Source: a virus. From it: a stretch of DNA of 46,063 nt. Shown here piece after piece: positions 1 to 46,063 of this stretch. The position numbers and the translations under genes were made by a program. The stretch spans positions 1 through 46,063 of IMG/VR virus record IMGVR_UViG_3300050009_000007; one strand, written 5' to 3'. The notes under the pieces were generated by a model. It ran no database searches. It saw only the letters and a program-made list of their open reading frames with translations, and was not told the DNA's origin. Position 1 is the first letter of the stretch, and each line of letters opens with the position of its first letter.

Positions 1-628
1 TCGCCTCTTGTTTGCTGATAAAAAAGTGGATTCCGTTTGAGCATTCCACCAGCGGGTTAGGGTCGTAGGTGTCCGGCTTGACCGTCTCGCCAACCTTGTA
101 TTCCATGCCGTTATGCTGGCTTTGACCGTTGCCCTCAAGCACCACGGCAAATTCAGCGCGACATTTGCGGCCAATAAAACCGCCAACACGTTTTGCTTTC
201 GCCGGAATTTGCAGTTTGCAAATCACCCCATCACACAATTTCTTCCAGCCAACTAAATCACCGTCCGGCACAATCGTCCTGACAGCTAAAAGTTTTAGAA
301 GGTCTGCGCCTGACAGGTTTGCGCGTGACAGGTCTGCGCCTGACAGGTTTGCGCCTGACAGGTTTGCGCCTGACAGGTCTGCGCCTGACAGGTCTGCGCG
401 TGACAGGTTTGCGCCTGACAGGTCTGCGCCTGACAGGTCTGCGCCTGACAGGTTTGCGCCTGACAGGTCTGCGCCTGACAGGTTTGCGCCTGACAGGCTT
501 GCGCCTGACAGGTATGCGCCTGACAGGTATGCGCCTGACAGGTTTGCGCCTGCCTCGCCTATATTTTCTTCGTCGGATTCAAACAGGATTATTTCGCTAT
601 TCCAGCGTGAGACGATTTTAATTTTCAT
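1..628 (-). CDS. Pentapeptide-repeat protein, paralog A (N-terminal ~209 codons; the 3' end is cut by the window start and completed by 45726..45745 if the molecule is circular)
   Basis: ATG at 626-628 (rc). Translation is [27 protein letters not shown], then ~17 A(D/N/Y/S)LS(G/R) pentapeptides, then a C-terminal domain with KCRAEF and GIHFF motifs. Identical to 44914..45630 outside the repeat array. Confidence 0.8.
301..552. repeat. 15-bp tandem repeat array (16 full units plus a partial unit), the coding DNA of the paralog A pentapeptides
   Basis: Head-to-tail units ggtYtgcgcStgaca with no spacers. Variation is essentially limited to two nucleotide positions per unit. Confidence 0.95.
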
Positions 629-696
629 AATTTTGCGTTGAGTTGGGGGTTATTAGTCATTTTCGCCGGTCATGTCTCCGCGCACACCGGGGCGAA

Positions 697-915
697 TCAG
701 GCAACCGGCAAATTGTTGTGGCGAGCCGCAGACTGGATGCAAAGCCATTTGTCCGGCCAAAGCTGCCAATCCGTCCCGTTCAGAGAATACCGAATCCATC
801 TACAGGTGGACGATTCGGATTCGACAATGATAGTGTGGCCGGCAAACCTAAAAACCAAGTCGGTTTTTTCGCCAGTCTCAATCTTGCTCGCCAGTTTCCA
901 TGATTTATTTTTCAT
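697..915 (-). CDS. Hypothetical protein (72 aa), first ORF of the - strand block
   Basis: ATG at 913-915 (rc). Same orientation as paralog A and 68 nt upstream of it. No recognisable motif. Competing + strand ORFs 638..919 and 643..903 leave the strand assignment uncertain. Confidence 0.4.
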   Translation of the reverse strand: MKNKSWKLASKIETGEKTDLVFRFAGHTIIVESESSTCRWIRYSLNGTDWQLWPDKWLCIQSAARHNNLPVA

Positions 916-1000
916 TTGATTCGCTTTTTGTTGTTTGTCGTACCGTCACTAACACCACACCATTAGCACTCGCCATGCCATGCCAAACGTATCAAAAACA

Positions 1001-1207
1001 GGACACTTTCTCAATTCGTGAGACACGCCACAAAACACAGAATCCACAATGGACACAATCCAATTACATCAAACTGTCCAGCAAGGCATACACAGCACCC
1101 CAAAGTGTATTCATGGACACTTTACAGGACACTATCGCAACCTATTGGAAACACCACACTTGCACTGTCTCAAATTCTCAAGACACTTTCCACAAACTTG
1201 ACACTTG
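1001..1207 (+). promoter_or_regulatory. Array of seven same-orientation RGACAC motifs in a G-poor tract (candidate terminase-binding, pac or operator repeats)
   Basis: RGACAC starts at 1001, 1021, 1051, 1115, 1127, 1181 and 1200; four copies read GACACTT(T/G). The array lies in the divergent gap between the - strand early genes and the + strand small-terminase candidate. Confidence 0.45.
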
Positions 1208-7029: not shown

Positions 7030-7044
7030 CAAAAACAAAACATC

Positions 7045-32111: not shown

Positions 32112-32266
32112 TATTTTGGTATGGTTATTTCAGGGTTTTCCAGTTAGCATAAAATTCCACGTCAGGAGCCATAACGCGGCGCGAATGAGATTCGCACCAA
32201 CTCCAAACGTGGAAAATTGATTTGCCGCGTTACTGGCATCCAGACAATTCAAATGTTGCACACAGT

Positions 32267-32470
32267 TCATGGCTTTGCAAGCGGTTTTTCCTCGATTGGT
32301 GGGGCAAAATATCCGCCTGTTATTTCGTCGTCACGCTCGGTCACATAGACCGTTTTCCCGCCGCCGCAAGCGGGGCAGGTTTCACCGGCGTTTGAACTGG
32401 TCAGAAGCGTGCTGCCAATCCAGCCGCGCCCGCCGCACGATGGACATAGAATTGGATAGGTTCTGGTCAT
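32267..32470 (-). CDS. Small DnaJ-type zinc-finger protein
   Basis: Two CxxCxGxG-like units (CPSCGGRG, CPACGGGK). ATG 32468-32470 forms an ATGA overlap with the upstream gene. Confidence 0.55.
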   Translation of the reverse strand: MTRTYPILCPSCGGRGWIGSTLLTSSNAGETCPACGGGKTVYVTERDDEITGGYFAPPIEEKPLAKP

Positions 32471-32895
32471 TTTATTTCCTTTCGTTGGCACAAATTAGCG
32501 AATTTTTGGGCGAAATCTGCCTGTTCCCGGTTCGGGTGCCGGATTGCGCCCGGACAATGCCAAAGCAGGCCCGTTTCGTAGTCAGTCGGCCAGCGGTGGT
32601 GAATTCTGTCAAAATGGGCACAGGAACGCACCAGGATGACCGCTGTGGCGTCGGAAACCCATTTAGCATTGATTTTAGCTGGAATGGGTATTTTGCACTC
32701 CCTGAGGCGATACGGCATGATTTGAGTCTCGCCAAGCTCGCCAGATGGCCCACAGTGACGATTAGAGCCGTTTTCAAGCTGTTTTAAGGCCCAAATCTGT
32801 CGCTCCATGCTGCTCTGCGCTGATGCGGAAAGGCAGAGGGTAAGAATCAGCACCGTGCAGCCGATGCAAGTTTTTGCGGTGCTAAAAGTGGTCAT
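32467..32895 (-). CDS. Secreted lytic transglycosylase (SLT-like), endolysin candidate
   Basis: N-terminal hydrophobic signal (CIGCTVLILTLCLSASA|QS). LKQLENGSN....GELGETQIMP fits E(S/N)....G..G..Qi.P of SLT domains. Confidence 0.55.
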   Translation of the reverse strand: MTTFSTAKTCIGCTVLILTLCLSASAQSSMERQIWALKQLENGSNRHCGPSGELGETQIMPYRLRECKIPIPAKINAKWVSDATAVILVRSCAHFDRIHHRWPTDYETGLLWHCPGAIRHPNREQADFAQKFANLCQRKEIK

Positions 32896-34004: not shown

Positions 34005-34461
34005 TCATGGATGCGGCCATTGCTGCTTCGGCCTCTTTTATTTCTTCGTCGGTTGGTTTGTAATTTGTGTTCTGTAACTGCTTGGCAAAAAACGGAACGA
34101 ACTGCTTTCGGCTGTTTTCGGAATAGGTCAAAAGACGCACATTATCGTCGCTGTATCCTTCTTCGTTTCGGATTCGGTCAACGGAAAGGAATCCTGCTCC
34201 CCGGCCATGATTCTTGGCCAGTCCCTCATCCCAAAGCTGTTTGAATCTAGTAAAGGAAAGTGTGAACGAATGGCCGCGCTCATGCGCCCGCTTTCGGAGA
34301 TTGTTGAACGCGCACTTGTCCGGGAATTTGTCTCGGAACCGACGATACCTGCATTTGGCGCAATATGGGGAATGGTCGAGTATTATCCTTGCCATGCCCC
34401 GGCAAAACTTAGTGAGGCACTTTTGGGAATGCTTAAAAGCTTTCTGGACGATGGCGCTCAT
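33997..34461 (-). CDS. HNH/homing-endonuclease-like protein
   Basis: Cys cluster at the N-terminus. FLSVDRIRNEEGYSDDNVRLLTYSENSRK matches the sIDRId...GY...Nv......eN..K pattern of phage HNH_3-type proteins. Confidence 0.45.
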   Translation of the reverse strand: MSAIVQKAFKHSQKCLTKFCRGMARIILDHSPYCAKCRYRRFRDKFPDKCAFNNLRKRAHERGHSFTLSFTRFKQLWDEGLAKNHGRGAGFLSVDRIRNEEGYSDDNVRLLTYSENSRKQFVPFFAKQLQNTNYKPTDEEIKEAEAAMAASMNE

Positions 34462-34486
34462 ATTTCAGCCTCCGGTTTGGTTGCGG

Positions 34487-34855
34487 TTATCCGTGTTCAA
34501 TCACTTGGTATGCGTCGGTGAAATTGTCCACCACTTCGGCTATGTATCCTAATTTTCGGGCGTGGGAAATCTTTGCCAGTTGTTCGACCGTCGTTTTCCC
34601 GCCCTTCGCCTTGCACTCCAAAAACACCGTCATTGCCATCGGCATGAATATAACGAAGTCTGGAAATCCGATAGGACCGTGGCTCGGTTTGTCCATCCTT
34701 TGATGGAAATATAAGTAGCCCTTTGATTCGCAATGTTTGATTATTTCATCATGCAAATCTCCCTCACGAACAACAGCGGCGGGATTTCGCTTATCGGCAA
34801 CCTTCGGCGCAACCCGCGCCTGCATCTCCCTGAACTGGTCTGGCGTTATTGGCAT
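34487..34855 (-). CDS. VRR-NUC domain nuclease
   Basis: GFPDFVIF....VFLECKAKGGKTTVEQ fits the PD-(D/E)xK core of VRR-NUC (G.PD....E.K...gk.s..Q). Confidence 0.7.
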   Translation of the reverse strand: MPITPDQFREMQARVAPKVADKRNPAAVVREGDLHDEIIKHCESKGYLYFHQRMDKPSHGPIGFPDFVIFMPMAMTVFLECKAKGGKTTVEQLAKISHARKLGYIAEVVDNFTDAYQVIEHG

Positions 34856-35028
34856 ATTTCATTCCTCTCTTTCTTCTGTCCCCTGTCCCCGCCATGTCTC
34901 GACACGGTTGACAGGCAAAATTCATCCCAAAACTTTATGGCCTTCATCTTGGCGTTAGTCTCGGCTGAGATTTCACGCCGGAATTGAGCATAGCCACCAG
35001 GCCATGGAGATTTAGGTTTTTGTGTCAT
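34846..35028 (-). CDS. Hypothetical protein (60 aa)
   Basis: ORF overlapping both neighbours by a few nt. No motif. Confidence 0.35.
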   Translation of the reverse strand: MTQKPKSPWPGGYAQFRREISAETNAKMKAIKFWDEFCLSTVSRHGGDRGQKKERNEICQ

Positions 35029-35164
35029 TCTGTTTTGTTCTTGGTTTTTGCTTGATTTTCTTAGGATGATTCAACCTGTAAATCCGCTGATACTCGCAAA
35101 CGCCAAGCTCCTTGATCGAAAGCCCGGTGATGCTAGGCCTGCCCATCTTTGGAAGTGTGGTCAT
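35012..35164 (-). CDS. Small HTH-like protein (50 aa)
   Basis: Hand translation MTTLPKMGRPSITGLSIKELGVCEYQRIYRLNHPKKIKQKPRTKQNDTKT. It starts 9 nt after the DnaC-like stop and is below the ORF-track threshold. Confidence 0.4.
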   Translation of the reverse strand: MTTLPKMGRPSITGLSIKELGVCEYQRIYRLNHPKKIKQKPRTKQNDTKT

Positions 35165-35173
35165 ATCAAGCCT

Positions 35174-35791
35174 TCAAGTTGGCCGCAGAGAATAGCTAAC
35201 GGTGTTGACCTCTACGACGATGTTTGGTTTGCGAATCATGCGGTCGGAAATGCGCGGGTCAATGGCCGCGAGTTGGAACAACATAAGATTGCTGGTGATG
35301 ATCGTCCATCGGTTGGCGCGGCATCCGATTAGGGTATTCAGATTCTCCGAAGCGAATCCTGTTGAATCTCGCTCGGCTCCAATGTCGTCGAGGAACAAAG
35401 CCGGCCACGAAAACATATCCCGAAGCCGCTCAAAAGCGATTCCAGCCCGTAAATCAGCAACGAACATCGGCCAGTAAATTTCGGTGGGGTTATATTCGCA
35501 ACGGTTCCAGTTGCTCCGGTTTTTCAGGTTTTCCCAAAGCCGCCGACCGCAATGGGTTTTACCCGTTCCGGTCACCCCTAAAAAGGAAATCCAGCGCGGA
35601 GATAGTCCGTTGGTGAAATCCACAGCAAACCGACCGCAGGCATCCACCATTGCCTCAATTTGCGGGTCGTCATGGGTTTGGAGGTTTAACCACTTTGCCA
35701 AAGTCTTTGTATCGGCTGGCGATTCCTTCGTTTGCTGTGCCAATGCTCCGGTCAATGCGTTGGACACCGTTTTTTGCATTTGTGTTTCCAT
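35174..35791 (-). CDS. DnaC/IstB-like AAA+ helicase loader
   Basis: Walker A GVTGTGKTH and Walker B ALFLDDIGAE, then TIITSNL. The start is uncertain: 35791 overlaps the upstream gene by 122 nt, and an alternative ATG lies at 35650. Confidence 0.75.
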   Translation of the reverse strand: METQMQKTVSNALTGALAQQTKESPADTKTLAKWLNLQTHDDPQIEAMVDACGRFAVDFTNGLSPRWISFLGVTGTGKTHCGRRLWENLKNRSNWNRCEYNPTEIYWPMFVADLRAGIAFERLRDMFSWPALFLDDIGAERDSTGFASENLNTLIGCRANRWTIITSNLMLFQLAAIDPRISDRMIRKPNIVVEVNTVSYSLRPT

Positions 35792-36395
35792 AAGTATGAG
35801 CGTTTATTTTCCACGTTGAAAGAGCGTGCGTCCACGACTTCATCGGATTCTTTCCGACCCGCCAGCCATTGCTGGTGTAATAGTTAAAAAACTTCTCGGC
35901 CTCGATGTCGCTGAGTCCTATTTTGGCAGCTTGGAGTTTGATGGCCGGAAGCTCAGGAACAATAAATCTAGAAACAGATACAGAAGCAGAAGCAGAAGCA
36001 GAAGCAGAGGGTGCATCCTGCTTTGCATCTACAATATGTAAAGCATTTGCATGTGGTTTGCTCCATCTTGCTTTAGCAGCATCCCGCCTTACGTCGCTGA
36101 TATTACAGTCCCTTAGGCGTTTTCGGCAGGAAAGGATTATGCAGTCGTTTTGCATGCCAACATTTGCCACTTTGAATGTTTTTAGCTGTTCCAAAGCAAG
36201 CTGCATTTGCGGAACTCGGCAGACGCAGAGCGACGCCAACTGCTCAATCGTTCCTGAAATGCTTCCTGTTTGCTGTAACATCATGGTGTTAATCGCTTCA
36301 AACCAAATGCCCCGCGTGGCGGCTTCGCAAAGCCTCAATCCCGGCTCGCTGGCCCAGTTCGTCGGATACCACTTTTCCCAAGGGAGTTCAGGCAT
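35670..36395 (-). CDS. Replication organiser (DUF1376/DnaD-like)
   Basis: MPELPWEKWYPTNWASEPGLRLCEAATRGIWFEAINTMM resembles the DUF1376 N-terminus. The C-terminus FFNYYTSNGWRVGKNPMKSWTHALSTW resembles replisome-organiser tails. It has an SASASASASVSVS linker. An alternative GTG start lies at 36470. Confidence 0.5.
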   Translation of the reverse strand: MPELPWEKWYPTNWASEPGLRLCEAATRGIWFEAINTMMLQQTGSISGTIEQLASLCVCRVPQMQLALEQLKTFKVANVGMQNDCIILSCRKRLRDCNISDVRRDAAKARWSKPHANALHIVDAKQDAPSASASASASVSVSRFIVPELPAIKLQAAKIGLSDIEAEKFFNYYTSNGWRVGKNPMKSWTHALSTWKINAHTYGNTNAKNGVQRIDRSIGTANEGIASRYKDFGKVVKPPNP

Positions 36396-36571
36396 AAAAG
36401 CTAAAGTGGCCTGCCGTGTAGAACCGGGCGACAGCGTTGACCCGAAGGCCAGAAGCCAAACCCAATGCACGGCAAGCCGCGTTAAATTTTGATGTTCTCA
36501 CTGTCTTTTTCTGGCCGGGTTCTAATCAGCCACTGGTTTAATTTCTATCATAACAGCTATTTTGTCAACAC

Positions 36572-36796
36572 CTATTTTCCCTCATCCATAAGGCTCCCAC
36601 TTTTCTCCCCGCCGTCTTGAAACCCGATTCGGTTCAACCGCTGGCGCAGCTTGACTTCGTGCTTAACCTTGCCCACGGCGTGTTCTAGCGCAATCGCAGC
36701 CCCAATCTGCATCGCCTCTTGAACCAGCACGGCGGGACGAATTCCAGACTTTCGACTGAAATCTAAAGCGGCTGATTTTATGCGGGATTCAATCAT
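36572..36796 (-). CDS. Hypothetical protein (74 aa) sharing its first 24 aa with 38094..38471
   Basis: The N-terminus MIESRIKSAALDFSRKSGIRPAVL lies inside the 114-bp exact repeat. Confidence 0.55.
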   Translation of the reverse strand: MIESRIKSAALDFSRKSGIRPAVLVQEAMQIGAAIALEHAVGKVKHEVKLRQRLNRIGFQDGGEKSGSLMDEGK

Positions 36797-36841
36797 GGCT
36801 GTTCATTTCAATATACGACTGGCGGTTGTATAATCACTGTT
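36728..36841. repeat. 114-bp exact direct repeat, copy 1 (spans the gene junction methyltransferase / 74-aa gene)
   Basis: Base-for-base identical to 38403..38516 by eye. It covers the last 12 sense codons plus the stop codon, a 6-nt spacer and the first 23 codons. Confidence 0.9.
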
Positions 36842-37573
36842 AGCCTGCTTGACCTGGGCGAGCAGGTAGCGCCCTATGTATTCGGTATATGCCGGCGGAA
36901 TTGCCTGACACATTTCGTCTCGGTTCATCCAGTCTATTTTCATCGCCGCCGCCGCTTCCTTTCGGTAGAGCATCCGGTGCTTTCCCGTATGACCGCCGTG
37001 GCCATATACGCCGACCGCCGGGCCGCGATGGTTGCACGCCGGTTGCGGCAGCGAAAAAGATGTCTCGAATATCCGGTGGCGGCGCAGGAAGCCGCGATCC
37101 ACACCAAGCCCGAACATTGACCCACACAGCACGACGCCATGATTTCCGAACAGGTCGGAGTATTCTTGGAGCGGAGCGCCTTCGACATTTTCGATGACGT
37201 AGGGATTGCCGATGCTTTTGAGCAGTTCGCGCACCGGCTCTATCAGCATCGGGTATTCTTTTCCGGGGTGCATTGCCCGCAGGTTTGAGTAGCCCTGGCA
37301 CGGCGGGCTTGCGTGGATTGCGTCGTATTCGTCACCGTGGGCAGCGCAGTATTCCAGCGCATCGGCCATGATGAACGTGTGCGGGTTATTCTTTTGTGGC
37401 TTGATGTCCACGCCGGTCACGTCGAAGCCAGCGCGCCGGTATCCTTCACCCGCTCCGCCGGCGCAGCAGAACAAATCCAGCAGACGCGGTGTAACAAGAC
37501 GCTGGAGAGAATCGCACTTGGCCTCTGCGGTTGCGACGCTCTCAGGTGTTTGGATGTCTGCGGCTTCGATCAT
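36803..37573 (-). CDS. DNA (cytosine-5) methyltransferase
   Basis: Motif I DLFCCAGGAG, motif IV ASPPCQGYS, motif VI YVIENVEG, C-terminal AIPPAYTEYIG. Confidence 0.9.
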   Translation of the reverse strand: MIEAADIQTPESVATAEAKCDSLQRLVTPRLLDLFCCAGGAGEGYRRAGFDVTGVDIKPQKNNPHTFIMADALEYCAAHGDEYDAIHASPPCQGYSNLRAMHPGKEYPMLIEPVRELLKSIGNPYVIENVEGAPLQEYSDLFGNHGVVLCGSMFGLGVDRGFLRRHRIFETSFSLPQPACNHRGPAVGVYGHGGHTGKHRMLYRKEAAAAMKIDWMNRDEMCQAIPPAYTEYIGRYLLAQVKQANSDYTTASRILK

Positions 37574-37577
37574 GGCT

Positions 37578-37829
37578 TCAGGTGTTCGGCGTGCGATCTC
37601 TCAGCTTTTCGTTCGGCGACTCTTTGGCTTGACGGCGGCGAGTTAGAAAACTGCCACGGCATCCAGCGATGAATCCAAGCAAGAATGCCCATGATGACCA
37701 GTTCAGTTTCCACCAGATTAGCACCTCAAGCACCATGCAGACGGCTAGGGATATTGTCCACGGCGTCGTCGAACAAGTTGCTGGAGGCGACGTGATTACG
37801 CCCTCAGATTTGCGATTGTCATTTGCCAT
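37578..37829 (-). CDS. Small membrane protein (83 aa)
   Basis: Internal ATG (37827-37829) of ORF 37578..38069. Hydrophobic SLAVCMVLEVLIWW and WAFLLGFIAGC. The upstream part of that ORF overlaps the better-supported 37819..38097 gene. Confidence 0.4.
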   Translation of the reverse strand: MANDNRKSEGVITSPPATCSTTPWTISLAVCMVLEVLIWWKLNWSSWAFLLGFIAGCRGSFLTRRRQAKESPNEKLRDRTPNT

Positions 37830-38097
37830 ATTTACCTTCCTCGGTTTGCGTTTGCATTGGTGAACGCGCCTCAGCACCCACGTTATGCCGCAGGCAGCGC
37901 ACGTTGAAGTTTGGCCCGTTTGCCCCACAGACTCCGCCGCATGTGCAGAGTTCGCCGTCGTCCTCGCTGTTTTCCTTGTGGGGCTTGTTGTGCTGACACC
38001 CCTCGCAGTAGTCATGCCCGTGATGGTCGCATAACACCAACTGCGGCATAACCCGCCCGATGGAGCCAACCCGCGTTACGCTTTTCTTTTTGCTCAT
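37819..38097 (-). CDS. Cys/His-rich small protein (92 aa)
   Basis: ATGA overlap with the upstream gene. CDHHGHDYCEGCQH...CTCGGVCG...C cluster. Confidence 0.5.
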   Translation of the reverse strand: MSKKKSVTRVGSIGRVMPQLVLCDHHGHDYCEGCQHNKPHKENSEDDGELCTCGGVCGANGPNFNVRCLRHNVGAEARSPMQTQTEEGKYGK

Positions 38098-38471
38098 AAA
38101 TCTTTTGGTGTTCGTGAGTCGCCGGTCGCGGGCGGCTCATCGGGGACGTTGGGCTGCTTGTAACCCTTCACTCGTGCATTCAAGAGCCACATTGCTAGTT
38201 TGCGCCTCCATTCAGGCAGGCATGGATTCACGCACATCAGCAGTTCAGCAGCTTCGTGCCAGCGTTCGATTGGAGCGACGATGACATGACCGCCGACGTT
38301 CATGCCGATTCCGCCGCCTTCAGTCACATGGATGCTTGGCGCGTAGTAGTCGCCGGGCTTCTTGCGCCAGATTTCTTTGTCGGTGTTCGAGCAGCAGCCC
38401 AACACGGCGGGACGAATTCCAGACTTTCGACTGAAATCTAAAGCGGCTGATTTTATGCGGGATTCAATCAT
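38094..38471 (-). CDS. Hypothetical protein (125 aa) sharing its first 24 aa with 36572..36796
   Basis: The N-terminus lies inside repeat copy 2. The remainder is unrelated to the 74-aa protein. Confidence 0.55.
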   Translation of the reverse strand: MIESRIKSAALDFSRKSGIRPAVLGCCSNTDKEIWRKKPGDYYAPSIHVTEGGGIGMNVGGHVIVAPIERWHEAAELLMCVNPCLPEWRRKLAMWLLNARVKGYKQPNVPDEPPATGDSRTPKDL

Positions 38472-38516
38472 GGCTGTTCATTTCAATATACGACTGGCGG
38501 TTGTATAATCACTGTT
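38403..38516. repeat. 114-bp exact direct repeat, copy 2
   Basis: Identical to 36728..36841. Flanking bases continue with scattered mismatches for about 10 nt. Confidence 0.9.
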
Positions 38517-39041
38517 GGCCTGATTAGCCTTTAGCAGTTCGCACACTGTTTCTGCGATGACGAGCGACGCTTGTTTGCCCGTGCGCGAGTATTTGATGAA
38601 GTCTGGCGCGAATATCTCAACCAAGACATCGCCCATGATGATTTTGCGGACACTCCACATTGTTATTTTGTCCGTGACTTTTTCAAACAGTCCGATGGCA
38701 GCGTGGAGGTGTTCAGAATATCCAGCGCAGACCCGCGATATTTCACACGTCACGACGGGCCGATAGTCGGCGCTCGTTGTCGTGTCGGGCAGTTTGAATT
38801 GCCGGCAGATATCATGCTTCCAGTTTTTCCACATGTCCGGCCACAGCGATTTATCAGATGGGTCATTGAGTCTGTCCGCGAGTTGTTGCCGTTCAGCGCG
38901 GGCGTGTGGCGAGTCGTATGGCGTCCCAAAGAAGTCGAGCTGAACTCCATCGAAGCAGAACACGATGAAGTCGGCAGGTGTTTCTCCGAGCAGTTCGCAA
39001 AGCTCAAAGTCGAGCGGCTTACTTTTGATTGTCGTTTTCAT
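38478..39041 (-). CDS. Hypothetical protein (187 aa) with the C-terminal tail QANSDYTTASRILK shared with the methyltransferase
   Basis: ATG 39039-39041; the ORF-track start at 39062 is a GTG. No recognised motif. Confidence 0.55.
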   Translation of the reverse strand: MKTTIKSKPLDFELCELLGETPADFIVFCFDGVQLDFFGTPYDSPHARAERQQLADRLNDPSDKSLWPDMWKNWKHDICRQFKLPDTTTSADYRPVVTCEISRVCAGYSEHLHAAIGLFEKVTDKITMWSVRKIIMGDVLVEIFAPDFIKYSRTGKQASLVIAETVCELLKANQANSDYTTASRILK

Positions 39042-39101
39042 ATTCACAGGCCAACAAATCACTTCAGCGAATGGCCACCGCGGCCATCGCTGAGTTCTAC
39101 G

Positions 39102-39563
39102 TTATCTGGCTTTGGCTTTGAGCCGTTGGATGCGGTCTATCTCTGCCGCGATTAGAGCGCCAGCCTTTACCAGGTTTCGCACTTGGTCTTCCGATGGCTT
39201 CCACCATTTTTCAGCCCACGGCCATGCCAGCGGCTCGGTAGACATCGCCACATTGGTTGCCCCGTGGATTGCTATTTGTCCTGATAGTCTCGCGTATGCC
39301 GCGCCAGCGAACGCCATTTGGCCGTGCTTATGAGTGTCGTCATGCTTCGGCGTCCATCCTTCGGCACTGATTTGCCGCTGTCGTTCCGCCTTGATGAGTT
39401 CGACGCCAGATAACAACTCACTGGAACCAACCGCCTTTACGGTCACAGATTCGGACGGCGCTGGTTGTTCTGGCTCTTGGCAGGTCAGGCAGGTGTATGG
39501 CTCTTTGACCGCTGTTGGGAAGGCGGCGAGTTGTCCGCATTTGACGCATTTTATCGGTTTCAT
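39102..39563 (-). CDS. Conserved phage protein with an N-terminal zinc ribbon (153 aa)
   Basis: CVKC...CLTC at the N-terminus. AERQRQISAEGWTPKHDDTH...AGALIAAEIDRI is a pattern I recognise from many phage hypothetical proteins but cannot name reliably. Confidence 0.55.
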   Translation of the reverse strand: MKPIKCVKCGQLAAFPTAVKEPYTCLTCQEPEQPAPSESVTVKAVGSSELLSGVELIKAERQRQISAEGWTPKHDDTHKHGQMAFAGAAYARLSGQIAIHGATNVAMSTEPLAWPWAEKWWKPSEDQVRNLVKAGALIAAEIDRIQRLKAKAR

Positions 39564-39590
39564 GTTTATTTTTTGTTTGTCGGCGGTGGT

Positions 39591-39860
39591 TCAGTTCGGC
39601 ACGTTAGACCACTTGTCACAGTTGTTTGTTAAGCCTTCTCGCAAGTCCACGCCAGCCTCACATCCACACGGCTCGCCGGGGTCGTCATGGTCGAAGTGCG
39701 AGGCAGGTTCTCCGGGCGAGAAGTGCCTGCAGATTATGCAGGCTCGGTTCGCTGGATTCCAGTTGCACATTTCTTCGTGCCGCACCATCCGCTTGCGGAC
39801 AGTCAGCACATTGCGCCCGCAGTTCCAAGAGCAGGCATAGGCTTTTATTTCTTTTGGCAT
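39591..39860 (-). CDS. Cys-rich small protein (89 aa)
   Basis: ATG 39858-39860 is preceded by AAGGAA. It contains nine cysteines. Confidence 0.5.
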   Translation of the reverse strand: MPKEIKAYACSWNCGRNVLTVRKRMVRHEEMCNWNPANRACIICRHFSPGEPASHFDHDDPGEPCGCEAGVDLREGLTNNCDKWSNVPN

Positions 39861-39906
39861 TTTTTGTTCCTTTGTGGTTTTCGGCGGCGAGTGGCTCAAG
39901 TCACCG

Positions 39907-40167
39907 TTAGGCGACCTTGGCCGCTGGTATTTCGGACATGATGAAGGTTGACCGCTCCATCAGGTGTATCATTTGTTTCCGCTGCGATTCGGTATCGGTG
40001 GCGAGTTCCACCACCATCCGGCACAGCGCCTCTTGCATCGTGATGATTCCGCCGTGGGCGTAGGCATCCATGATTTGTTTCACGCGGACTATTTCGTAGC
40101 CAAGCACGCGCACCGGGTCAGGAAACTCGGCGTAGCGGCGTTGGATTTCTTCGTGTCGTAGTTGCAT
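39907..40167 (-). CDS. Hypothetical protein (86 aa)
   Basis: Clean ORF with no motif. Confidence 0.5.
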   Translation of the reverse strand: MQLRHEEIQRRYAEFPDPVRVLGYEIVRVKQIMDAYAHGGIITMQEALCRMVVELATDTESQRKQMIHLMERSTFIMSEIPAAKVA

Positions 40168-40280
40168 ATTGTCGGTCGCCTAACAAGTGCGTCGAGCCAA
40201 TCCCGGTTGGCCGCTGCACTTTATTCGTTCAGGTTCCTGGTTGTTGTGTGTCGTGAGTCCGGGATGGCTCACGCACGACG
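40168..40280 (-). repeat. Repeated intergenic element, copy A
   Basis: It shares cctaacaagt-N5-gagccaat-N2-cggttggccg at identical spacing with copy B, plus tggttgtt and atggctca further along. It contains GCCAA-N6-TTGGC. Confidence 0.5.
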
Positions 40281-40949
40281 TTAGACGGCTCGGCCACGGT
40301 TTGCGGTTTCAGTTGCAGCATCGGATTCTTCGCCACGCTCTTGAGCGAGTTCCTGATTGGCTATTTCCTGCGCCTCATAAATCGCGGCGGAGCGTTTGTA
40401 TTCCGCGATGGTATCTGCATATTTCAGCGAGTCGTATCTCTTTAGACCGCCTCCGTTTTCAGCCAGACGCCTAGCGATGTCGCGCCAGTAACGAACATCG
40501 CATGTGAGTTGACCGCACTTTGTCACTTCGCGGCCAAGATTTGAGTGGGCAAGCGCATAGTTTGCGGACTTTACAATCAGTTCGCGTTCAAGTTCGCGGG
40601 CGTGCGATGCTCGCACATATCCAGCCCCGCCGAGTGCGCGAAGGTTTTCTTCGGCCAGGTCGGTTCGCGGTGTTTCGGAATAGTTGCTTGAGGCGTTAGG
40701 TGCTTGATACGATGCGAACATTTCCAGCCAGTCACGCATATAGACATGAGCGGCAGTTTTCGCGTTTTGGATGTCCCACGTTTCTTGCTCGTCTGCATCC
40801 GGCACGAACGCGCCTTGCAGTTTTACTCGTCCATCCGGCGATGCGACGACCAACAGGAACAGGGTGGTTTCGGGATGGCCGGAGAGGTAGCCACGCATGG
40901 TTTCCTCGTCACGACGTTCCCACACTATTTCGATGAGTTTTTCTGTCAT
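40281..40949 (-). CDS. Hypothetical protein (222 aa)
   Basis: Internal ATG (40947-40949) of ORF 40281..41099. The upstream 150 nt of that ORF coincide with intergenic-element copy B. Confidence 0.5.
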   Translation of the reverse strand: MTEKLIEIVWERRDEETMRGYLSGHPETTLFLLVVASPDGRVKLQGAFVPDADEQETWDIQNAKTAAHVYMRDWLEMFASYQAPNASSNYSETPRTDLAEENLRALGGAGYVRASHARELERELIVKSANYALAHSNLGREVTKCGQLTCDVRYWRDIARRLAENGGGLKRYDSLKYADTIAEYKRSAAIYEAQEIANQELAQERGEESDAATETANRGRAV

Positions 40950-41053
40950 AAATTTTTCAGTTATCACGTTCGCACCTAACAAGTCGCCGGAGCCAATGAC
41001 GGTTGGCCGTCGCAGTTCCGCTTCGCGGGTGATGTTGGTTGTTCCGTCATGGC
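40950..41053 (-). repeat. Repeated intergenic element, copy B
   Basis: See copy A. The core lies at 40975..41009. Confidence 0.5.
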
Positions 41054-41332
41054 TCAGCTCCGAATGTTCGGTGGCTTTTGGCCAGTGCAGAGCGCCCACG
41101 TTATTGCCCGCACGTCTTGAGCCGCCGCCACCATTTTCTTGCCTACGTTTTGCCGTGATTTTAGCACCATCATGGCGAGGTCATTTATTCGCAAAAGTTC
41201 GTCGGCTGTAATCGGACAAGCCACCGAACCCGGCGTGGCAGATAATTTGCTCTGCGCCCGACAGCTTGGATGTACTGGGGTGTCGGTGTTCATCCCACCA
41301 AAACCGTGCGCGTATGTCGTTTTATCGCTCAT
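41054..41332 (-). CDS. Hypothetical protein (92 aa)
   Basis: Clean ORF with an ATG start. No motif. Confidence 0.45.
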   Translation of the reverse strand: MSDKTTYAHGFGGMNTDTPVHPSCRAQSKLSATPGSVACPITADELLRINDLAMMVLKSRQNVGKKMVAAAQDVRAITWALCTGQKPPNIRS

Positions 41333-41347
41333 ATCTGAACTTTCTCG

Positions 41348-42301
41348 TTACGGCGTCAAATCGAATCCCGCTTCGGGTGTGGGTTGTTGGTCATATTCCA
41401 GCTTGTCCTCAAGAGCAGAAAATTCCATCCAAGGCTCTGCTTGAACCAAGCTAAATTCGTCAGCAGGATCGTAGCCTGACCACTCGCCGGTTTTTAGGCA
41501 GCGGGCGTATTTTTCCAAAGCGTAGGTGAAACTTTGACGGCCAATGTCGAGAAAATCCTGCCCAAGCAATCGGCGTCCGGTTTCAAACGGGGCGTAATTT
41601 TCCTGCAAAATGAAAATCCACTCACACCTATCTTCGCCAGTTGCAGCCGTGTAAAGCGCAAGGTCAAACGCGGCCTGGATGTGATAACCAGCCGTGAAGC
41701 ACCAGCGGGAGAATGGTCGCTGTCCAGCATTGCGCGTGGACTTCAAATCGCCAAGGGACTTTTGAAACTCAGAATCCTTTCGAGGAACGAAGTCAATCAG
41801 GCATTGGACGGGGATAATCAGGCCGGTCTTGGCGTCCAGCCATTCCCCGGAAACGTGAACCTGCTTGTCGCTGGCTTTGTGGTAGGCTGCAATCGTGTCA
41901 TCAGACAGCAAACGCTTGACGGCGTTTTCAGCGTTTGTCAGTTCAGTGCCGGAAACAATGTTGAATCCCTCATGGTCGGCCAGCCATTCCTTGCATACGT
42001 TTGAATTGCCGTTCCAAGGTTTTTCTTCGCCGGTCTTGGAATCGCGGTAGGTTGCCGGCTTGATGGCGTAGCGCGTCTTAAATTGCTCTGGCGTTAGCAA
42101 AAGACAGTCAAGCAGGTTGCCAAACTGTTTTGCCTCCGAATCAGGCGAAACATATCCCGCCTTATATCTACTTGGGCATTCCGAGAAAGATTTAAGGCTT
42201 GATGGGGACATGCGAAACTCAGGGGTGCATCGCTCTGCTTCTTGGTGGTGATACGCCTCAGAATTTATTCCAACTCCAATAATTTTCGCGTTTTTGAACA
42301 T
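41348..42301 (-). CDS. PD-(D/E)XK exonuclease (RecE C-terminal / DUF3799-like)
   Basis: ATG 42299-42301 is preceded by GGAGG. ...CLIDFVP....LGDLKST fits D...(D/E)xK. The partner ERF gene lies upstream. Confidence 0.6.
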   Translation of the reverse strand: MFKNAKIIGVGINSEAYHHQEAERCTPEFRMSPSSLKSFSECPSRYKAGYVSPDSEAKQFGNLLDCLLLTPEQFKTRYAIKPATYRDSKTGEEKPWNGNSNVCKEWLADHEGFNIVSGTELTNAENAVKRLLSDDTIAAYHKASDKQVHVSGEWLDAKTGLIIPVQCLIDFVPRKDSEFQKSLGDLKSTRNAGQRPFSRWCFTAGYHIQAAFDLALYTAATGEDRCEWIFILQENYAPFETGRRLLGQDFLDIGRQSFTYALEKYARCLKTGEWSGYDPADEFSLVQAEPWMEFSALEDKLEYDQQPTPEAGFDLTP

Positions 42302-42302
42302 A

Positions 42303-42851
42303 TTAAATATGCCTCCACGTTTTTCCTGTGACAATGTTCCAAATACTTTGAAAACAAACCCCGTATCGCTTTGCAAGTTGGTGGCAGTTATTTCCGAAAG
42401 GCTTGGGTGAATAGATTTTTCGTATTTTCAAAACGTCTTTCGTTTTCAGTTTTGAAGCCCCGCAGCCTTCTCCCCGCGCCGTTATTCTTCTGCCTCTGTC
42501 GTCCATGTCTTTGGAGTTTGTCTTTGCGGTTCCTTTGTAAAGGTGGTCTGGATTCCAGCAGGCGCGATTATCACAGGTGTGGCAAATCATTGATTCCGAA
42601 TTTACTTCGCCAACAAAAAGAAAATAGGACAGCCGATGAATGCGCCACTGACGCCCACCGCGAAACGCCTTCCATTCCATAACCCCATATCCGTCTTTAT
42701 CTCGACACCCATCCCAAACAAAGCATCCAGCCGATTCGTGCGAACAATCTGCCAAAGAGTTGGCTTTCTGATAAGGGAAAACGAAATGACAAGAACGTGA
42801 TGTCACGTCATGTAGCATTCTGCGTATTTGCCATTGGTTCATACTTTTCAT
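42303..42851 (-). CDS. HNH endonuclease (free-standing, homing-type)
   Basis: DKDGYGVMEW....RIHRLSYFLFVGEV....ICHTCDNRACWNPDHLYKGTAKTN is a typical HNH (H-N-H with CxxC...C) pattern. The C-terminal part is HTH-like. Confidence 0.8.
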   Translation of the reverse strand: MKSMNQWQIRRMLHDVTSRSCHFVFPYQKANSLADCSHESAGCFVWDGCRDKDGYGVMEWKAFRGGRQWRIHRLSYFLFVGEVNSESMICHTCDNRACWNPDHLYKGTAKTNSKDMDDRGRRITARGEGCGASKLKTKDVLKIRKIYSPKPFGNNCHQLAKRYGVCFQSIWNIVTGKTWRHI

Positions 42852-43642
42852 TGGTGCGCCTCAACTTTCTGGCGGAACTTTTCAAGCTCTCCCTTGGTGG
42901 TCGGAATGATGGAGTCGGGCAAATCATCCATTGAGCCATCCGGCATAATGACAGATTCATCAATCGCCCATTGCAAAATCTTCTGGTGAATGTCCTTGGT
43001 GACTTCAAAGAAGCGATTGCGGATTTCAGTTGTGACAACGCGGCCAGTGGCCGACGCCTTGGGCGGGTTTCCTCCGTCCTTATCCTCGCCAGCAAACACT
43101 AGCCCGTAAGCGTTTCCCAATACGCGACGATTTGAGAACGTCAGAGCGGCGGCATATTGCTGTGTGTCGCTCATTATCGCCGTGCGTGTCCCAAGCGGGA
43201 ACTTTCCAACGCTGGTCTTGGAATGTCCAAGGGTATGCGTAATCGTCACGCTGGTTATTACCCACCCCGGCTGGCTGGCGACATCCTGGTTGTAGGTGTG
43301 GGTGAAGCCATGTTCGCGCTCGATTGGCCGGATAACTTCCTCAATTTTCTCAATCGGGGCGTATTTGTAAGCGGTCGCTCCCGAACGGTCAGGAACACCC
43401 CTGCCCTTGATGATGACCGGACATTGCGCCTGAAACGCTGACATGGCTTCGTCAAACGCTTGCGCGGCGGCTATGGCTTGATCTTCGCGCAGCATGGCGC
43501 GGAGTTCCTTCACAACCTCAACGGCGGCTTTCGAGTCAACCGCTTTGGTAATCAGTTCTTCGATATTGATGGTTGGCAATATAGGCCGCGCCAATGCTCC
43601 CGGTTTACGTTCCACAACCACCATTTCATTTTGTTTGTTCAT
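42848..43642 (-). CDS. ERF-family single-strand annealing protein
   Basis: YKYAPIEKIEEVIRPIEREHGF and MSDTQQYAAALTFSNRRVLGNAYGLVFAGEDKDG align by eye with P22 Erf (YKYRSCEDILEGVKPLL...; ...SSYARKYCLNGLFGIDDAKDAD). Confidence 0.8.
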   Translation of the reverse strand: MNKQNEMVVVERKPGALARPILPTINIEELITKAVDSKAAVEVVKELRAMLREDQAIAAAQAFDEAMSAFQAQCPVIIKGRGVPDRSGATAYKYAPIEKIEEVIRPIEREHGFTHTYNQDVASQPGWVITSVTITHTLGHSKTSVGKFPLGTRTAIMSDTQQYAAALTFSNRRVLGNAYGLVFAGEDKDGGNPPKASATGRVVTTEIRNRFFEVTKDIHQKILQWAIDESVIMPDGSMDDLPDSIIPTTKGELEKFRQKVEAHQ

Positions 43643-43664
43643 ATTGGGTTTGGTTCACCGCAAG

Positions 43665-43895
43665 TTAATCCCGCGCCGTCTCGCTGCCTTCCGACATACC
43701 GCGAACGGTGGGAACAGGCGTTTTGGGACACGGCGTGGGAAAGTTTAATGCGCTGGCCAGCATTTCGTTTTGCTTGGTCAGGCCGTCGCAAAGAGTTACA
43801 ATCATTCGTAATTCTTCGAAGGCAGAAAATAGGTCCACGGTTTTCATCCTCTCTTGGACGAACGCTTTTATTGCTGGCGTGTTGTCAATGCTCAT
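43665..43895 (-). CDS. Hypothetical protein (76 aa)
   Basis: Clean ORF with no motif. Confidence 0.45.
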   Translation of the reverse strand: MSIDNTPAIKAFVQERMKTVDLFSAFEELRMIVTLCDGLTKQNEMLASALNFPTPCPKTPVPTVRGMSEGSETARD

Positions 43896-43898
43896 AAA

Positions 43899-44084
43899 TT
43901 ATTTTATCTTGCTGATTTTAGACGCCCAAAAACGGGTCATTTTCTTTTGGCCGGGAAGTAATACCAGCCCGTCGCGTCCATTGAATTGAGGGTGTATCCC
44001 GATTAGCTTCCCAACCAATTGCAATCCCTTGAAGTTCACAATTACTTTCTGGCCAATCAGGGGTTTGAGTTCGTTTGCTGTCAT
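43899..44084 (-). CDS. Hypothetical protein (61 aa)
   Basis: GAGGAAG SD-like sequence 8 nt upstream of the ATG. GQKVIVNFKGLQLVGKLIGI is vaguely Sm/KOW-like. Confidence 0.45.
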   Translation of the reverse strand: MTANELKPLIGQKVIVNFKGLQLVGKLIGIHPQFNGRDGLVLLPGQKKMTRFWASKISKIK

Positions 44085-44160
44085 GCGTGTATCTTCCTCT
44101 ATATCTATAGATTGTCAATGCAAAAGTGCGTTTATTTTAATCTCTCCATCCCCCTGCCCG

Positions 44161-44475
44161 TCAGCGGGTTGGGTGTTTGCGCTTCGGCAACAGCGATTTC
44201 AGAAAGGCTAGTTCTTCACGGGCGGCGGCTTTGAATGCGCCGGAACGCTTGCCTATGTTAAAGTAATTCCAGTTAGCCTCTCCCCACGGCGAACCCCAGC
44301 AATCACTTTGTTTAGTTTCTGCCATCACCGGACATCCCTCACAAGGGCCGGGAAACAGTTTGCAAAGCGGGCAGTAATGGCCAGACGGTTTTTCTCCGCG
44401 TTTTGTTTTTCCAGTGGCCAACCTGCGCCAATGCGCGATGGATTGTTTAAGTGCTTTCAGTGTTTTGGCGTTCAT
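44161..44475 (-). CDS. Cys-rich small protein (104 aa)
   Basis: Internal ATG (44473-44475) with an ATGA overlap to the upstream gene. HYCPLCKLFPGPCEGCPV...C cluster. Confidence 0.5.
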   Translation of the reverse strand: MNAKTLKALKQSIAHWRRLATGKTKRGEKPSGHYCPLCKLFPGPCEGCPVMAETKQSDCWGSPWGEANWNYFNIGKRSGAFKAAAREELAFLKSLLPKRKHPTR

Positions 44476-44693
44476 ATCATCACCTCCGCGCCGGGTAATG
44501 CGTTCAGGTTGCGAACCAGCACGGCCAGCCGCGACGCCTGACGCACTTCGTAACGCTTTCCGTCCGGGCAATGGACAACCCCGCTTGCCCCGCTGCAAAT
44601 GATGCGCAAACAGGCAACCCGGAACTGGCGTTGAGGATGGACATAATCCACGGCAACCCGCTTGCCATTGTATTCGGCTATGTGTGCGCTCAT
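44472..44693 (-). CDS. Hypothetical protein (73 aa)
   Basis: ATG 44691-44693 with an ATGA overlap to the upstream gene. Confidence 0.45.
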   Translation of the reverse strand: MSAHIAEYNGKRVAVDYVHPQRQFRVACLRIICSGASGVVHCPDGKRYEVRQASRLAVLVRNLNALPGAEVMI

Positions 44694-44902
44694 CGCGTTC
44701 CTTTCTCCGCATACTCGCGCAAGGTCTGAGCCAAATTTGGGTAGTTCCATTGCTCGGCTATTTCCTCAAGAACAGCGAGGCTGGCCGTGTCGTTGCGGTA
44801 AAGGGTTTCAGCGTCAAACACCTCAACAATCGCGTTTAGCTGTCGCGTTTCCGGCGTCGTGCCTATGCGGACGCGAGGCCAGGGGTATTTTGAGTTTTCC
44901 AT
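44690..44902 (-). CDS. Small acidic hypothetical protein (70 aa)
   Basis: ATG 44900-44902 lies 7 nt after AAGGAA. It sits immediately downstream of pentapeptide paralog B. Confidence 0.5.
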   Translation of the reverse strand: MENSKYPWPRVRIGTTPETRQLNAIVEVFDAETLYRNDTASLAVLEEIAEQWNYPNLAQTLREYAEKGTR

Positions 44903-44913
44903 AATCATTTTCC

Positions 44914-45630
44914 TTAGTTGTAGTCAATCGCCTCTTGTTTGCTGATAAAAAAGTGGATTCCGTTTGAGCATTCCACCAGCGGGTTAGGGTCGTAGGTGTC
45001 CGGCTTGACCGTCTCGCCAACCTTGTATTCCATGCCGTTATGCTGGCTTTGACCGTTGCCCTCAAGCACCACGGCAAATTCAGCGCGACATTTGCGGCCA
45101 ATAAAACCGCCAACACGTTTTGCTTTCGCCGGAATTTGCAGTTTGCAAATCACCCCATCACACAATTTCTTCCAGCCAACTAAATCACCGTCCGGCACAA
45201 TCGTCCTGACAGCTAAAAGTTTTAGAAGGTCTGCGCCTGACAGGTATGCGCGTGACAGGTCTGCGCCTGACAGGTCTGCGCGTGACAGGTCTGCGCCTGA
45301 CAGGTTTGCGCCTGACAGGTTTGCGCCTGACAGGTCTGCGCCTGACAGGTCTGCGCGTGACAGGTTTGCGCCTGACAGGTCTGCGCCTGACAGGTTTGCG
45401 CCTGACAGGTCTGCGCGTGACAGGTCTGCGCCTGACAGGTCTGCGCCTGACAGGTTTGCGCCTGACAGGTCTGCGCCTGACAGGTTTGCGCCTGACAGGC
45501 TTGCGCCTGACAGGTATGCGCCTGACAGGTCTGCGCCTGACAGGTTTGCGCCTGCCTCGCCTATATTTTCTTCGTCGGATTCAAACAGGATTATTTCGCT
45601 ATTCCAGCGTGAGACGATTTTAATTTTCAT
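44914..45630 (-). CDS. Pentapeptide-repeat protein, paralog B (238 aa)
   Basis: About 22 consecutive A(D/N/Y/S)LS(G/R) pentapeptides flanked by a 27-aa N-terminal segment and a ~100-aa C-terminal domain ([24 protein letters not shown]). Confidence 0.9.
45228..45554. repeat. 15-bp tandem repeat array (21 full units plus a partial unit), the coding DNA of the paralog B pentapeptides
   Basis: Same unit as 301..552 but five units longer and with a different order of unit variants. Confidence 0.95.
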
Positions 45631-45725
45631 AATTTTGCGTTGAGTTGGGGGTTATTAGTCATTTTCGCCGGTCATGTCGCGTTCAAAACCGGCGCGCCGT
45701 CGTTCGCGTTTGGTTTTTCATAATT

Positions 45726-46063
45726 TTAGTTGTAGTTGTAGTCATTCGCCTCTTGTTTGCTGATAAAAAAGTGGATTCCGTTTGAGCATTCCACCAGCGG
45801 GTTAGGGTCGTAGGTGTCCGGCTTGACCGTCTCGCCAACCTTGTATTCCATGCCGTTATGCTGGCTTTGACCGTTGCCCTCAAGCACCACGGCAAATTCA
45901 GCGCGACATTTGCGGCCAATAAAACCGCCAACACGTTTTGCTTTCGCCGGAATTTGCAGTTTGCAAATCACCCCATCACACAATTTCTTCCAGCCAACTA
46001 AATCACCGTCCGGCACAATCGTCCTGACAGCTAAAAGTTTTAGAAGGTCTGCGCCTGACAGGT
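45726..46063 (-). CDS. Pentapeptide-repeat protein paralog A, C-terminal part (runs off the window end; continues at 319..628 if circular; 215 aa in total)
   Basis: The stop is at 45726-45728 (rc). The C-terminus ...[17 protein letters not shown] differs from paralog B (...QEAIDYN). 45746..46063 is identical to 1..318. Confidence 0.8.
   Translation of the reverse strand, partial: LSGADLLKLLAVRTIVPDGDLVGWKKLCDGVICKLQIPAKAKRVGGFIGRKCRAEFAVVLEGNGQSQHNGMEYKVGETVKPDTYDPNPLVECSNGIHFFISKQEANDYNYN
45746..46063. repeat. 318-bp terminal overlap with 1..318 (circular closure or terminal redundancy)
   Basis: The sequence is identical by eye over the full 318 bp. Confidence 0.85.

Follow-up and report, generated by a model that had tools for sequence, protein, structure and literature searches.

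A tandem pair of near-identical pentapeptide-repeat proteins with a C-terminal DUF5758 in the early-type operon of a tailed phage

Among described pentapeptide-repeat proteins (PRPs), MfpA and Qnr mimic DNA by means of a rod of about eight coils, comparable in size to 30 bp of DNA, that dimerizes head to head through a C-terminal helix and offers a DNA-like negative surface (PMC8145042). The T7 protein Ocr (gp0.3) packs 34 acidic and 6 basic residues into 116 residues (PMC3439906). The pentapeptide-repeat gene Orf-232 of the P22-like Salmonella phages ST64T and L is built of 15-bp units whose number differs between near-identical phages, ST64T and L being one unit apart (PMC8022706). Here we analyze two genes, paralogs A and B, in a 46,063-nucleotide stretch of tailed-phage DNA (IMG/VR record IMGVR_UViG_3300050009_000007, positions 1 to 46,063; hereafter the window), which an earlier note, made from the sequence alone, had taken to encode acidic DNA mimics. 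We found that the two proteins are further members of a large family, catalogued in Pfam and uncharacterized, in which a pentapeptide array is joined to the domain DUF5758, and that they stand here in a duplicated arrangement.

Paralog A occupies 44914..45630 on the minus strand and encodes 238 residues: a 27-residue N-terminal cap, 22 pentapeptide units, a linker helix, and DUF5758. Paralog B, on the same strand, is divided between the two ends of the window. Its first 209 codons lie at 1..628, with the ATG at 628, and the gene runs on across the window junction to its last six codons and stop (NDYNYN, then stop; 45726..45745, minus strand), which stand next to base 1 on the circular map, for a full length of 215 residues. 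A repeat search and an exact overlap test showed that positions 1-318 are an exact copy of 45746-46063, the longest terminal overlap being 318 nucleotides. The real unit is therefore 45,745 bp, a circular or terminally redundant phage genome, and the start codon at 628 belongs to the very gene that the window end interrupts. The overlap at 45746..46063, a feature without strand, holds the C-terminal part of B and 18 nucleotides of the B array; it contains no third gene. The earlier note had placed the pair at 44914-46063, a range that takes in A completely and B only for its C-terminal 111 codons.

The A array (45220..45549, minus strand) consists of 22 units of 15 nucleotides that encode residues 28-137, and Tandem Repeats Finder (TRF) placed it at 45227-45554 with a period of 15 and 21.9 copies. 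The B array (293..547, minus strand) has 17 units of the same length, encoding residues 28-112 (TRF, 300-552, 16.9 copies). TRF reported 92% matches for these 15-nucleotide tandem repeats. The units in both arrays read A(D/N/Y/S)LS(G/R), are encoded by GCA-(A/G/T)AC or AGC-CTG-TCA-(G/C)GC, and end with a last unit ADLLK. This last unit excepted, they vary only at codon 2 (AAC, GAC, TAC, or AGC) and codon 5 (GGC or CGC), so that the units differ only at the outward-facing positions i-1 (N/D/Y/S) and i+2 (G/R). Outside the arrays the two paralogs are about 99-100% identical: their first 27 residues are the same, and their last 100 or so codons are the same save for one Ile-to-Asn change and an extra Tyr-Asn in B. 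The description of the pair as identical outside the array and the last codons therefore holds, bar the Ile/Asn codon and a 6-nucleotide duplication. The latter, a tandem copy of TACAAC at 45729-45740 in the 3′ end of B, is the source of the added Tyr-Asn and amounts to a second small slippage event besides the array. The 48 nucleotides upstream of A (45631..45678, minus strand) are part of the duplicated unit and are identical to the 48 nucleotides upstream of B (629..676, minus strand), as had also been noticed before.

Profile searches identified both halves of the proteins. The array matched Pfam PF00805, with E-values of 2.5e-45 for A and 4e-42 for B. The C-terminal domain, which the earlier note had recognized as recurrent in phages and bacteria and could not name, was found in a hidden Markov model (HMM) search to be DUF5758 (PF19062; cut-off 26.9 bits). 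In A it lies at 44929..45192 on the minus strand (residues 147-234; E-value 5.5e-17, 62.1 bits) and in B at 2..265 on the same strand (residues 122-209; 62.5 bits), the bases of the latter occurring again at 45747-46010. The only PHROGs matches were to families of unknown function. AlphaFold2 (AF2) modeling with a family alignment gave predicted local distance difference test (pLDDT) values of 89.9 for full-length A and 88.4 for DUF5758 alone. In the model of A, a two-strand N-terminal cap and a short helix are followed by a beta-helix that runs without a break from about residue 28 to 133, with a short strand every five residues from 29 to 133, as fits a quadrilateral beta-helix of right-handed sense with four repeats to each coil; a helix at 135-142 then leads into a beta-rich globular domain of about 95 residues that ends in a helix. 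Against a minimum of eight contiguous A(D/N)LXX pentapeptides, A has 22 and B has 17, corresponding to 5.5 and 4.25 coils, and Foldseek superimposed the modeled helix of A best on NP275-NP276 (PDB 2J8K; root mean square deviation 0.8 Å, 56% identity over 106 columns). The pentapeptide beta-helix fold that had been proposed from the sequence is thus borne out by profile and model alike. We conclude that each protein is predicted to be cytoplasmic and to have three parts, namely an N-terminal cap, a right-handed pentapeptide beta-helix, and a short helix that leads to a compact DUF5758.

Conservation within the family is concentrated in the C-terminal domain. Paralogs A and B both have the motifs WKK, AKR, RKCRAE, and EC..GIHFF..EA, which vary little or not at all in 33 diverse members. 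In the numbering of the 104-residue domain, the invariant or near-invariant residues are K20, K21, I32, R38, R45, K46, C47, R48, Y68, C87, G90, I91, H92, F93, E99, and A100, among which K20, R38, the run R45-K46-C47-R48 (R45 and C47 being near-invariant), Y68, C87, and, in the GIHFF motif, G90 and H92 stand out as invariant. All of these residues are confined to DUF5758, and none lies in the array.

We searched for the family with the C-terminal domain as the query. There were 242 close homologues; among the 120 listed, all carry PF19062 and most also carry PF00805. An exhaustive profile search returned 1,740 clusters (50% identity, E-value of at most 1e-30), a count that includes giant repeat-only proteins because the profile held repeat columns; its top matches are mostly 200-340 residues long and have the same architecture of array and DUF5758. 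The family gene is present on at least 583 IMG/VR contigs, at 132 loci from many phyla among bacterial and archaeal representatives of 185,579 species, and in 158 records of sequenced phages. Mycobacteriophages account for 152 of these records, including Bruin (gp54; genus Kostyavirus), 244 (gp59), and about 150 others, with genomes of about 71-75 kb in those examined. The other carriers include Rhizobium phage RHph_TM3_3_14B (EVB67_031), Ralstonia phage BOESR1 (gene 9), and Synechococcus phages B3 and B23. Of four phage proteins that we checked directly, each either shows both domains or carries an annotation as a pentapeptide protein. The members from sequenced phages, which are 253-281 residues long, resemble A and B in having the same two Pfam domains in the same order, the same DUF5758 motifs, and a position in the early operon, but their DUF5758 is only 37-53% identical, and they are encoded by a single copy rather than by a near-identical tandem pair. 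When the region was compared by Megablast with 50,697 phage records, nothing matched, and an exact-sequence look-up of protein A gave no record.

In the 146 family copies that no contig end interrupts, the median array has 17 units (interquartile range, 12-22; full range, 0-56). The 17 and 22 units of B and A are therefore ordinary, and the earlier suggestion that length is tunable finds support in the different array lengths of close relatives.

DUF5758 is also found apart from pentapeptide arrays. It occurs as a free-standing gene of about 100 residues, and at locus L090, whose operon diverges from the terminase genes in a layout like that of the window, the pentapeptide part (5631-6137, 168 residues) and DUF5758 (7001-7285, 94 residues) are separate genes with two genes between them. 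Among the predicted structures in BFVD, the DUF5758 fold appears in proteins of giant viruses with MORN, HEAT, RING, or pentapeptide in their descriptions (template modeling (TM) scores of 0.7-0.82, E-values down to 2.7e-07) and in four paralogs of Acidovorax phage ACP17. The giant-virus proteins (from Hyperionvirus, Harvfovirus, Edafosvirus, Klosneuvirus, and mimiviruses) and those of ACP17 thus share the predicted fold with A and B and are often multicopy within a genome; they differ in that the partner module is MORN, HEAT, or RING, or is absent, and the hosts of the giant viruses are eukaryotic.

Proteins of described systems share this architecture at most in part. The topoisomerase-protecting PRPs MfpA, Qnr (QnrB1, AhQnr, and EfsQnr), AlbG, and McbG are, like A and B, right-handed quadrilateral beta-helices of A(D/N)LXX units, but they have a C-terminal dimer helix, functional loops in some cases, and no DUF5758 (PMC8145042), whereas A and B run through perfectly regular coils and then into DUF5758. 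Foldseek identities to the Qnr, MfpA, and AlbG structures are 14-25%. The NCBIfam scores fall five to nine times below the cut-offs: 49.6 bits versus 240 for Qnr, 39.8 versus 360 for MfpA, and 32-51 versus 425-500 for the QnrA, B, S, C, D, E, and VC models. NP275/NP276 (PDB 2J8K), which supply the closest solved structures to the A and B helix, are cyanobacterial consensus PRPs, as is Alr5209, whose NCBIfam model scored 152 bits against a cut-off of 125. These proteins are cellular and without DUF5758, and the match to them reflects the consensus repeat only. Ocr resembles A and B in being a net acidic protein and the product of a probable early gene, but it is an alpha-helical dimer with no relation in sequence or fold, and a search of PDB sequences gave only PRPs. 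Finally, Orf-232 is likewise a pentapeptide-repeat gene and lies in the early-left operon next to ral. We considered it as a characterized relative and rejected it, since it has a different C-terminal domain with no DUF5758 match; it is an analogue and not a family member. In ST64T (locus L007), Orf-232 lies at 11086-11784 between ral and gene 17, and its units read ADLRG/TNLRG.

The proposal of the earlier note can be weighed against charge, coil number, and conservation. In the form examined here, it holds that the acidic beta-helix of A and B mimics B-DNA and blocks a host DNA-binding enzyme (such as a restriction or defense nuclease, RecBCD, or gyrase), the length of the helix tuning the mimic. 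Among the 238 residues of paralog A, 30 are acidic, 19 of them Asp, and 21 are basic, which gives a net charge of -9, and B has a net charge of -6 over 215 residues. For the arrays alone the values are -7 and -4; the predicted PRP fold and the two net negative arrays speak for mimicry. The label "Asp-rich" is nevertheless an overstatement: the proteins are mildly so, and 19 Asp in 238 residues is what an ordinary A(D/N)LXX consensus provides. Charge density is also far below that of Ocr (30 acidic and 21 basic residues per 238 versus 34 and 6 per 116). Across 206 members, array net charge has a median of -1 and a range of -18 to +5, with 63% negative, in line with mimicry, 10% zero, and 27% positive; the positive and neutral arrays belong in part to close relatives with 60-97% identical DUF5758, and positive units such as ANLRG and ANLRS occur. 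Array charge is thus not conserved, and a conserved family function cannot depend on a polyanionic helix. The exposed array positions do vary nonsynonymously, and the early-type operon position is next to a recombination module, where lambdoid phages keep inhibitors of the Gam, Abc, or Ral type; both would suit a mimic. Against this, the 5.5 and 4.25 coils pass into a globular domain, in place of the roughly eight coils and C-terminal helix dimer of MfpA and Qnr, the scores and identities to those proteins are as low as given above, and the conserved residues all lie in DUF5758, which also occurs alone or on MORN, HEAT, and RING scaffolds. We conclude that DNA mimicry is an improbable explanation and that this part of the earlier note is not upheld, although the mildly acidic A/B pair itself may yet act in this way. 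An all-Asp ladder on one face of the A helix (an Asp in every coil when the units are read in fours) is absent from B, and we treated it as chance.

The arrays themselves carry a distinctive pattern of variation. In the clade formed by A, B, and loci L008-L011, departures of codons from the unit consensus are nearly always nonsynonymous changes, located at i-1 and i+2, with nonsynonymous-to-synonymous counts of 16:1, 14:1, 25:0, 26:4, 22:0, and 21:0 (these are counts of units and not of independent events), while third codon positions are essentially invariant. This pattern suggests that young arrays are homogenized by slippage or recombination and that amino acid diversity is kept at the exposed positions. 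The closest relative that we found, the gene at locus L174, has flanks 97-100% identical with those of A and B, and the three differ in the order and number of their units. Mutagenesis of the kind produced by diversity-generating retroelements was considered on account of the codon 2 alternatives AAC, GAC, TAC, and AGC, and rejected: there is no template repeat, array-like sequence being present only at the two gene copies, there is no reverse transcriptase among the open reading frames (ORFs) scanned, which were not every ORF, and codon 5 varies between G and C and is thus not adenine-specific.

We further conclude that A and B are a real tandem duplicate of one gene and a very recent one. 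The B-specific tail is followed by 47 nucleotides that are unique within the window (45679..45725, minus strand, from the B stop to the duplicated leader of A) and then by that leader, which establishes the tandem arrangement of two copies. The alternative is that the tandem pair, or the exact array lengths, are an artifact in which two strain variants of a single-copy gene were stitched in series by the assembler. In its favor, both window ends fall exactly where A and B begin to differ, the overlap lying inside sequence common to both paralogs. Because the 318-nucleotide shared block is also longer than the usual short-read k-mer sizes, the pairing of arrays with tails and the copy number rest on the assembly. 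In addition, exact-pattern scans found no copy of the tandem junction sequence in IMG/VR or Joint Genome Institute (JGI) metagenome contigs, which counts for an artifact, as does the single-copy state of L174. However, a B tail, 47 unique nucleotides, and an A leader in succession cannot arise by collapse of two alleles. Exact repeats are at most 52 nucleotides long within each array and at most 119 nucleotides long between the arrays, so k-mers of 127-141 can resolve them, and the array of L174 has, independently, 17 units. Tandem copies are known from four other lineages as well. We therefore regard an assembly artifact as quite unlikely.

The L174 sequence comes from an independent JGI metagenome contig on which the gene is present once, at 97% nucleotide identity, with 17 units, an A-type tail, and a similar start of the downstream gene. 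By sequence comparison this suggests that a single copy with the IDYN tail is ancestral and the B tail derived. The L174 orthologue (2-379) lies directly downstream of an ORF that, by eye, resembles a transposase fragment, and only the last 27 or so nucleotides of the 48-nucleotide leader of the window are shared. Elsewhere, 4 of about 170 loci carry two or three diverged copies with a domain identity of 68-89%; such tandem or nearby copies in four other lineages indicate that duplication is occasionally kept. Independent tandem or multicopy genes at loci L031 (6852-9259), L151, L168, and L172 have arrays of up to 56 units, with Lys- or Trp-rich units (ADLSK, ADLWR), that are not acidic. Breakage at arrays, a further point in favor of an artifact, is common: in 31 of 177 family gene copies in public contigs (18%; loci L009-L173), a contig end truncates the gene on the array side. 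Evidently, 15-nucleotide arrays break metagenome assemblies, and family proteins in databases are often truncated and may have collapsed arrays.

The genome consists of two opposed blocks. The plus-strand block begins at 1205, ends near 30,600, and includes the genes for the terminase large subunit and the portal and the major head and tail genes. The minus-strand block, from about 31,000 to 46,063 and continuing at 915-1, carries replication and recombination genes, including those for an Erf-like annealase, an HNH endonuclease, an exonuclease, a DnaC-like loader, a clamp-like protein, a resolvase-type nuclease, and a methyltransferase. Between the two blocks lies a divergent intergenic region, measured from the ORF map as 916..1204 (no strand). 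Read from this gap, the minus-strand order is an ORF at 697..915, B, a 95-nucleotide spacer, A, an ORF at 44690..44908, several small genes, and Erf. The earlier note's placement of the pair as second and third genes beside the divergent region is thus confirmed.

A position near the head of an early-type operon, as had been proposed, recurs in unrelated phages. In Mycobacterium phage Bruin, the family gene is the third gene of an operon divergent from the repressor, with exonuclease and Erf a few kilobases downstream; in Rhizobium phage RHph_TM3_3_14B, it comes after three small genes on the downstream side of the repressor C gene; and in the autographivirus BOESR1, it belongs to a group of small genes located upstream of the RNA polymerase gene. 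Its neighbors in metagenomic phages are genes for Erf, RecT, SSB, exonuclease, SNF2 helicase, or methylase, and at loci L090 and L091 it is the third or fourth gene after a divergent gap. The commonest same-strand neighbors over about 170 loci are Erf-like genes (12 loci), SSB (11 loci), exonuclease-like genes, and upstream helix-turn-helix (HTH) repressors, and neighbor clustering across these loci revealed no obligatory partner gene, such as one of an immunity or antitoxin-like kind. This synteny across phages makes an early, accessory role a reasonable inference.

These neighbors also raise the possibility that A and B are part of the recombination and replication module of the phage, with DUF5758 binding DNA ends or single-stranded DNA together with Erf, exonuclease, and SSB, and are not directed at the host. 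The conserved basic cluster in DUF5758 would suit such binding, and in the window the genes for Erf, HNH endonuclease, and exonuclease are 1.3-3.5 kb downstream of the pair. Linkage is loose, however, since the commonest neighbors are found at fewer than 10% of loci, and the T7-like phage BOESR1 has the gene upstream of its RNA polymerase gene without such a module. The presence of DUF5758 in giant viruses speaks in the same direction, and a core replication part would not be expected to vary so much in copy number and array length. We consider this explanation distinctly improbable.

A third possibility starts from the repressors. Family genes lie close to the repressor or immunity regions of temperate phages, they are variable and duplicated, as defense cargo often is, and they are present in bacterial genomes, presumably in prophages; A and B could thus be morons that are expressed in lysogeny and guard the host against other phages by superinfection exclusion or defense. 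Yet the genes point the same way as the lytic early operon and diverge from the repressor, PADLOC gave no match, and the representatives of 185,579 species yielded only 132 matches. The gene is also present in the autographivirus BOESR1, although BOESR1 has an integrase gene too. In our estimate, a moron role is very unlikely indeed.

The explanation that we tentatively prefer, and to which we give a little less than an even chance, is that A and B are early accessory proteins of host takeover or counter-defense in which DUF5758 does the work and the beta-helix serves as a rigid surface, variable in length and quick to evolve. On this account, the two genes would be transcribed early from the divergent control region, and their products would act as accessory host-takeover or counter-defense factors. 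The conserved DUF5758 would supply the working or binding activity; its basic cluster, together with its set of two cysteines and a histidine, suggests that it may bind a phosphate-rich ligand, nucleic acid, or metal. The beta-helix may present DUF5758 or may itself contact a variable host partner; its array changes as units are gained or lost and as residues at the two outward-facing positions are substituted. Duplication would then give the phage two length and surface variants at once.

Several results weigh against a host-takeover or counter-defense role with DUF5758 as the working module. With Foldseek, DUF5758 has no counterpart in the PDB (best E-value 1.2, TM score below 0.3); its profile gave only a spurious bZIP match among PDB sequences (E-value 0.47), and in Pfam, at E-values up to 10, only a weak hint of DUF7666 (E-value 0.07). 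Because the domain is thus without a structural or sequence relative of known function, its proposed activity is a guess. In a literature search, no paper mentioned DUF5758, and searches on pentapeptide repeats in phages gave no functional study. The PADLOC-DB scan, which covered models of defense systems, gave no match for A or its two neighbors. At loci L089 and L092, the gene is about 15 genes into the operon and not near its head, and a promoter scan of the divergent gap (916-1204) found no sigma-70-like site. Finally, the near-complete restriction of exposed variation to nonsynonymous changes argues that the array surface matters, and a mimic and a target-binding surface would look alike in this respect.

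A bolder form of the early accessory reading is possible, and we hold it to be doubtful. Here, DUF5758 would be an unrecognized effector or targeting domain of new fold, used by phages of many bacterial phyla and by giant viruses of eukaryotes on swappable repeat scaffolds; the phage scaffold, a pentapeptide beta-helix, would be remodeled in its length and exposed residues by 15-nucleotide slippage under diversifying selection, and the duplication would field two variants in an arms race against a host factor.

Other features of the window are as follows. The first gene of the minus-strand block, directly upstream of B (697..915, minus strand, 72 residues, from the ORF map), had no match in Pfam, PHROG, PADLOC, or NCBIfam. 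The gene directly downstream of A in the ORF list (44690..44908, minus strand, 72 residues) has a homologous start that is also found 3′ of the single-copy orthologue in L174. In the divergent gap, the sequence AGTGTC(C/T)(A/T) occurs four times within 190 nucleotides (1000-1187, minus strand), out of 11 copies on both strands of the whole window, and this cluster could be a set of operator or iteron-like sites in the control region. The HNH endonuclease gene (42303-42851, minus strand) lies between the genes for the Erf-like annealase (42848..43642) and the exonuclease (41348..42376) and overlaps both; a homing-type insertion into the recombination module could account for it. A 117-nucleotide exact direct repeat at 36724-36842 and 38399-38517 spans the gene junction and the first 24 codons (MIESRIKSAALDFSRKSGIRPAVL) of two otherwise unrelated minus-strand genes, 36572..36796 (74 residues) and 38094..38471 (125 residues), and is a second instance in this genome of a duplicated leader and N terminus.

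The finding itself is a modest one, as the architecture is already in Pfam and the DNA-mimic idea is not borne out across the family. Paralogs A and B are nonetheless naturally occurring alleles whose difference is almost confined to helix length, and they thus form a handy reagent for the effect of length. The family to which they belong is very common in phage early regions, being present on hundreds of IMG/VR contigs and in T7-like and temperate phages of hosts from several phyla. A function for DUF5758, if found, would annotate thousands of viral genes, and it could reveal a mechanism of host manipulation or counter-defense that is common to bacterial and eukaryotic viruses.

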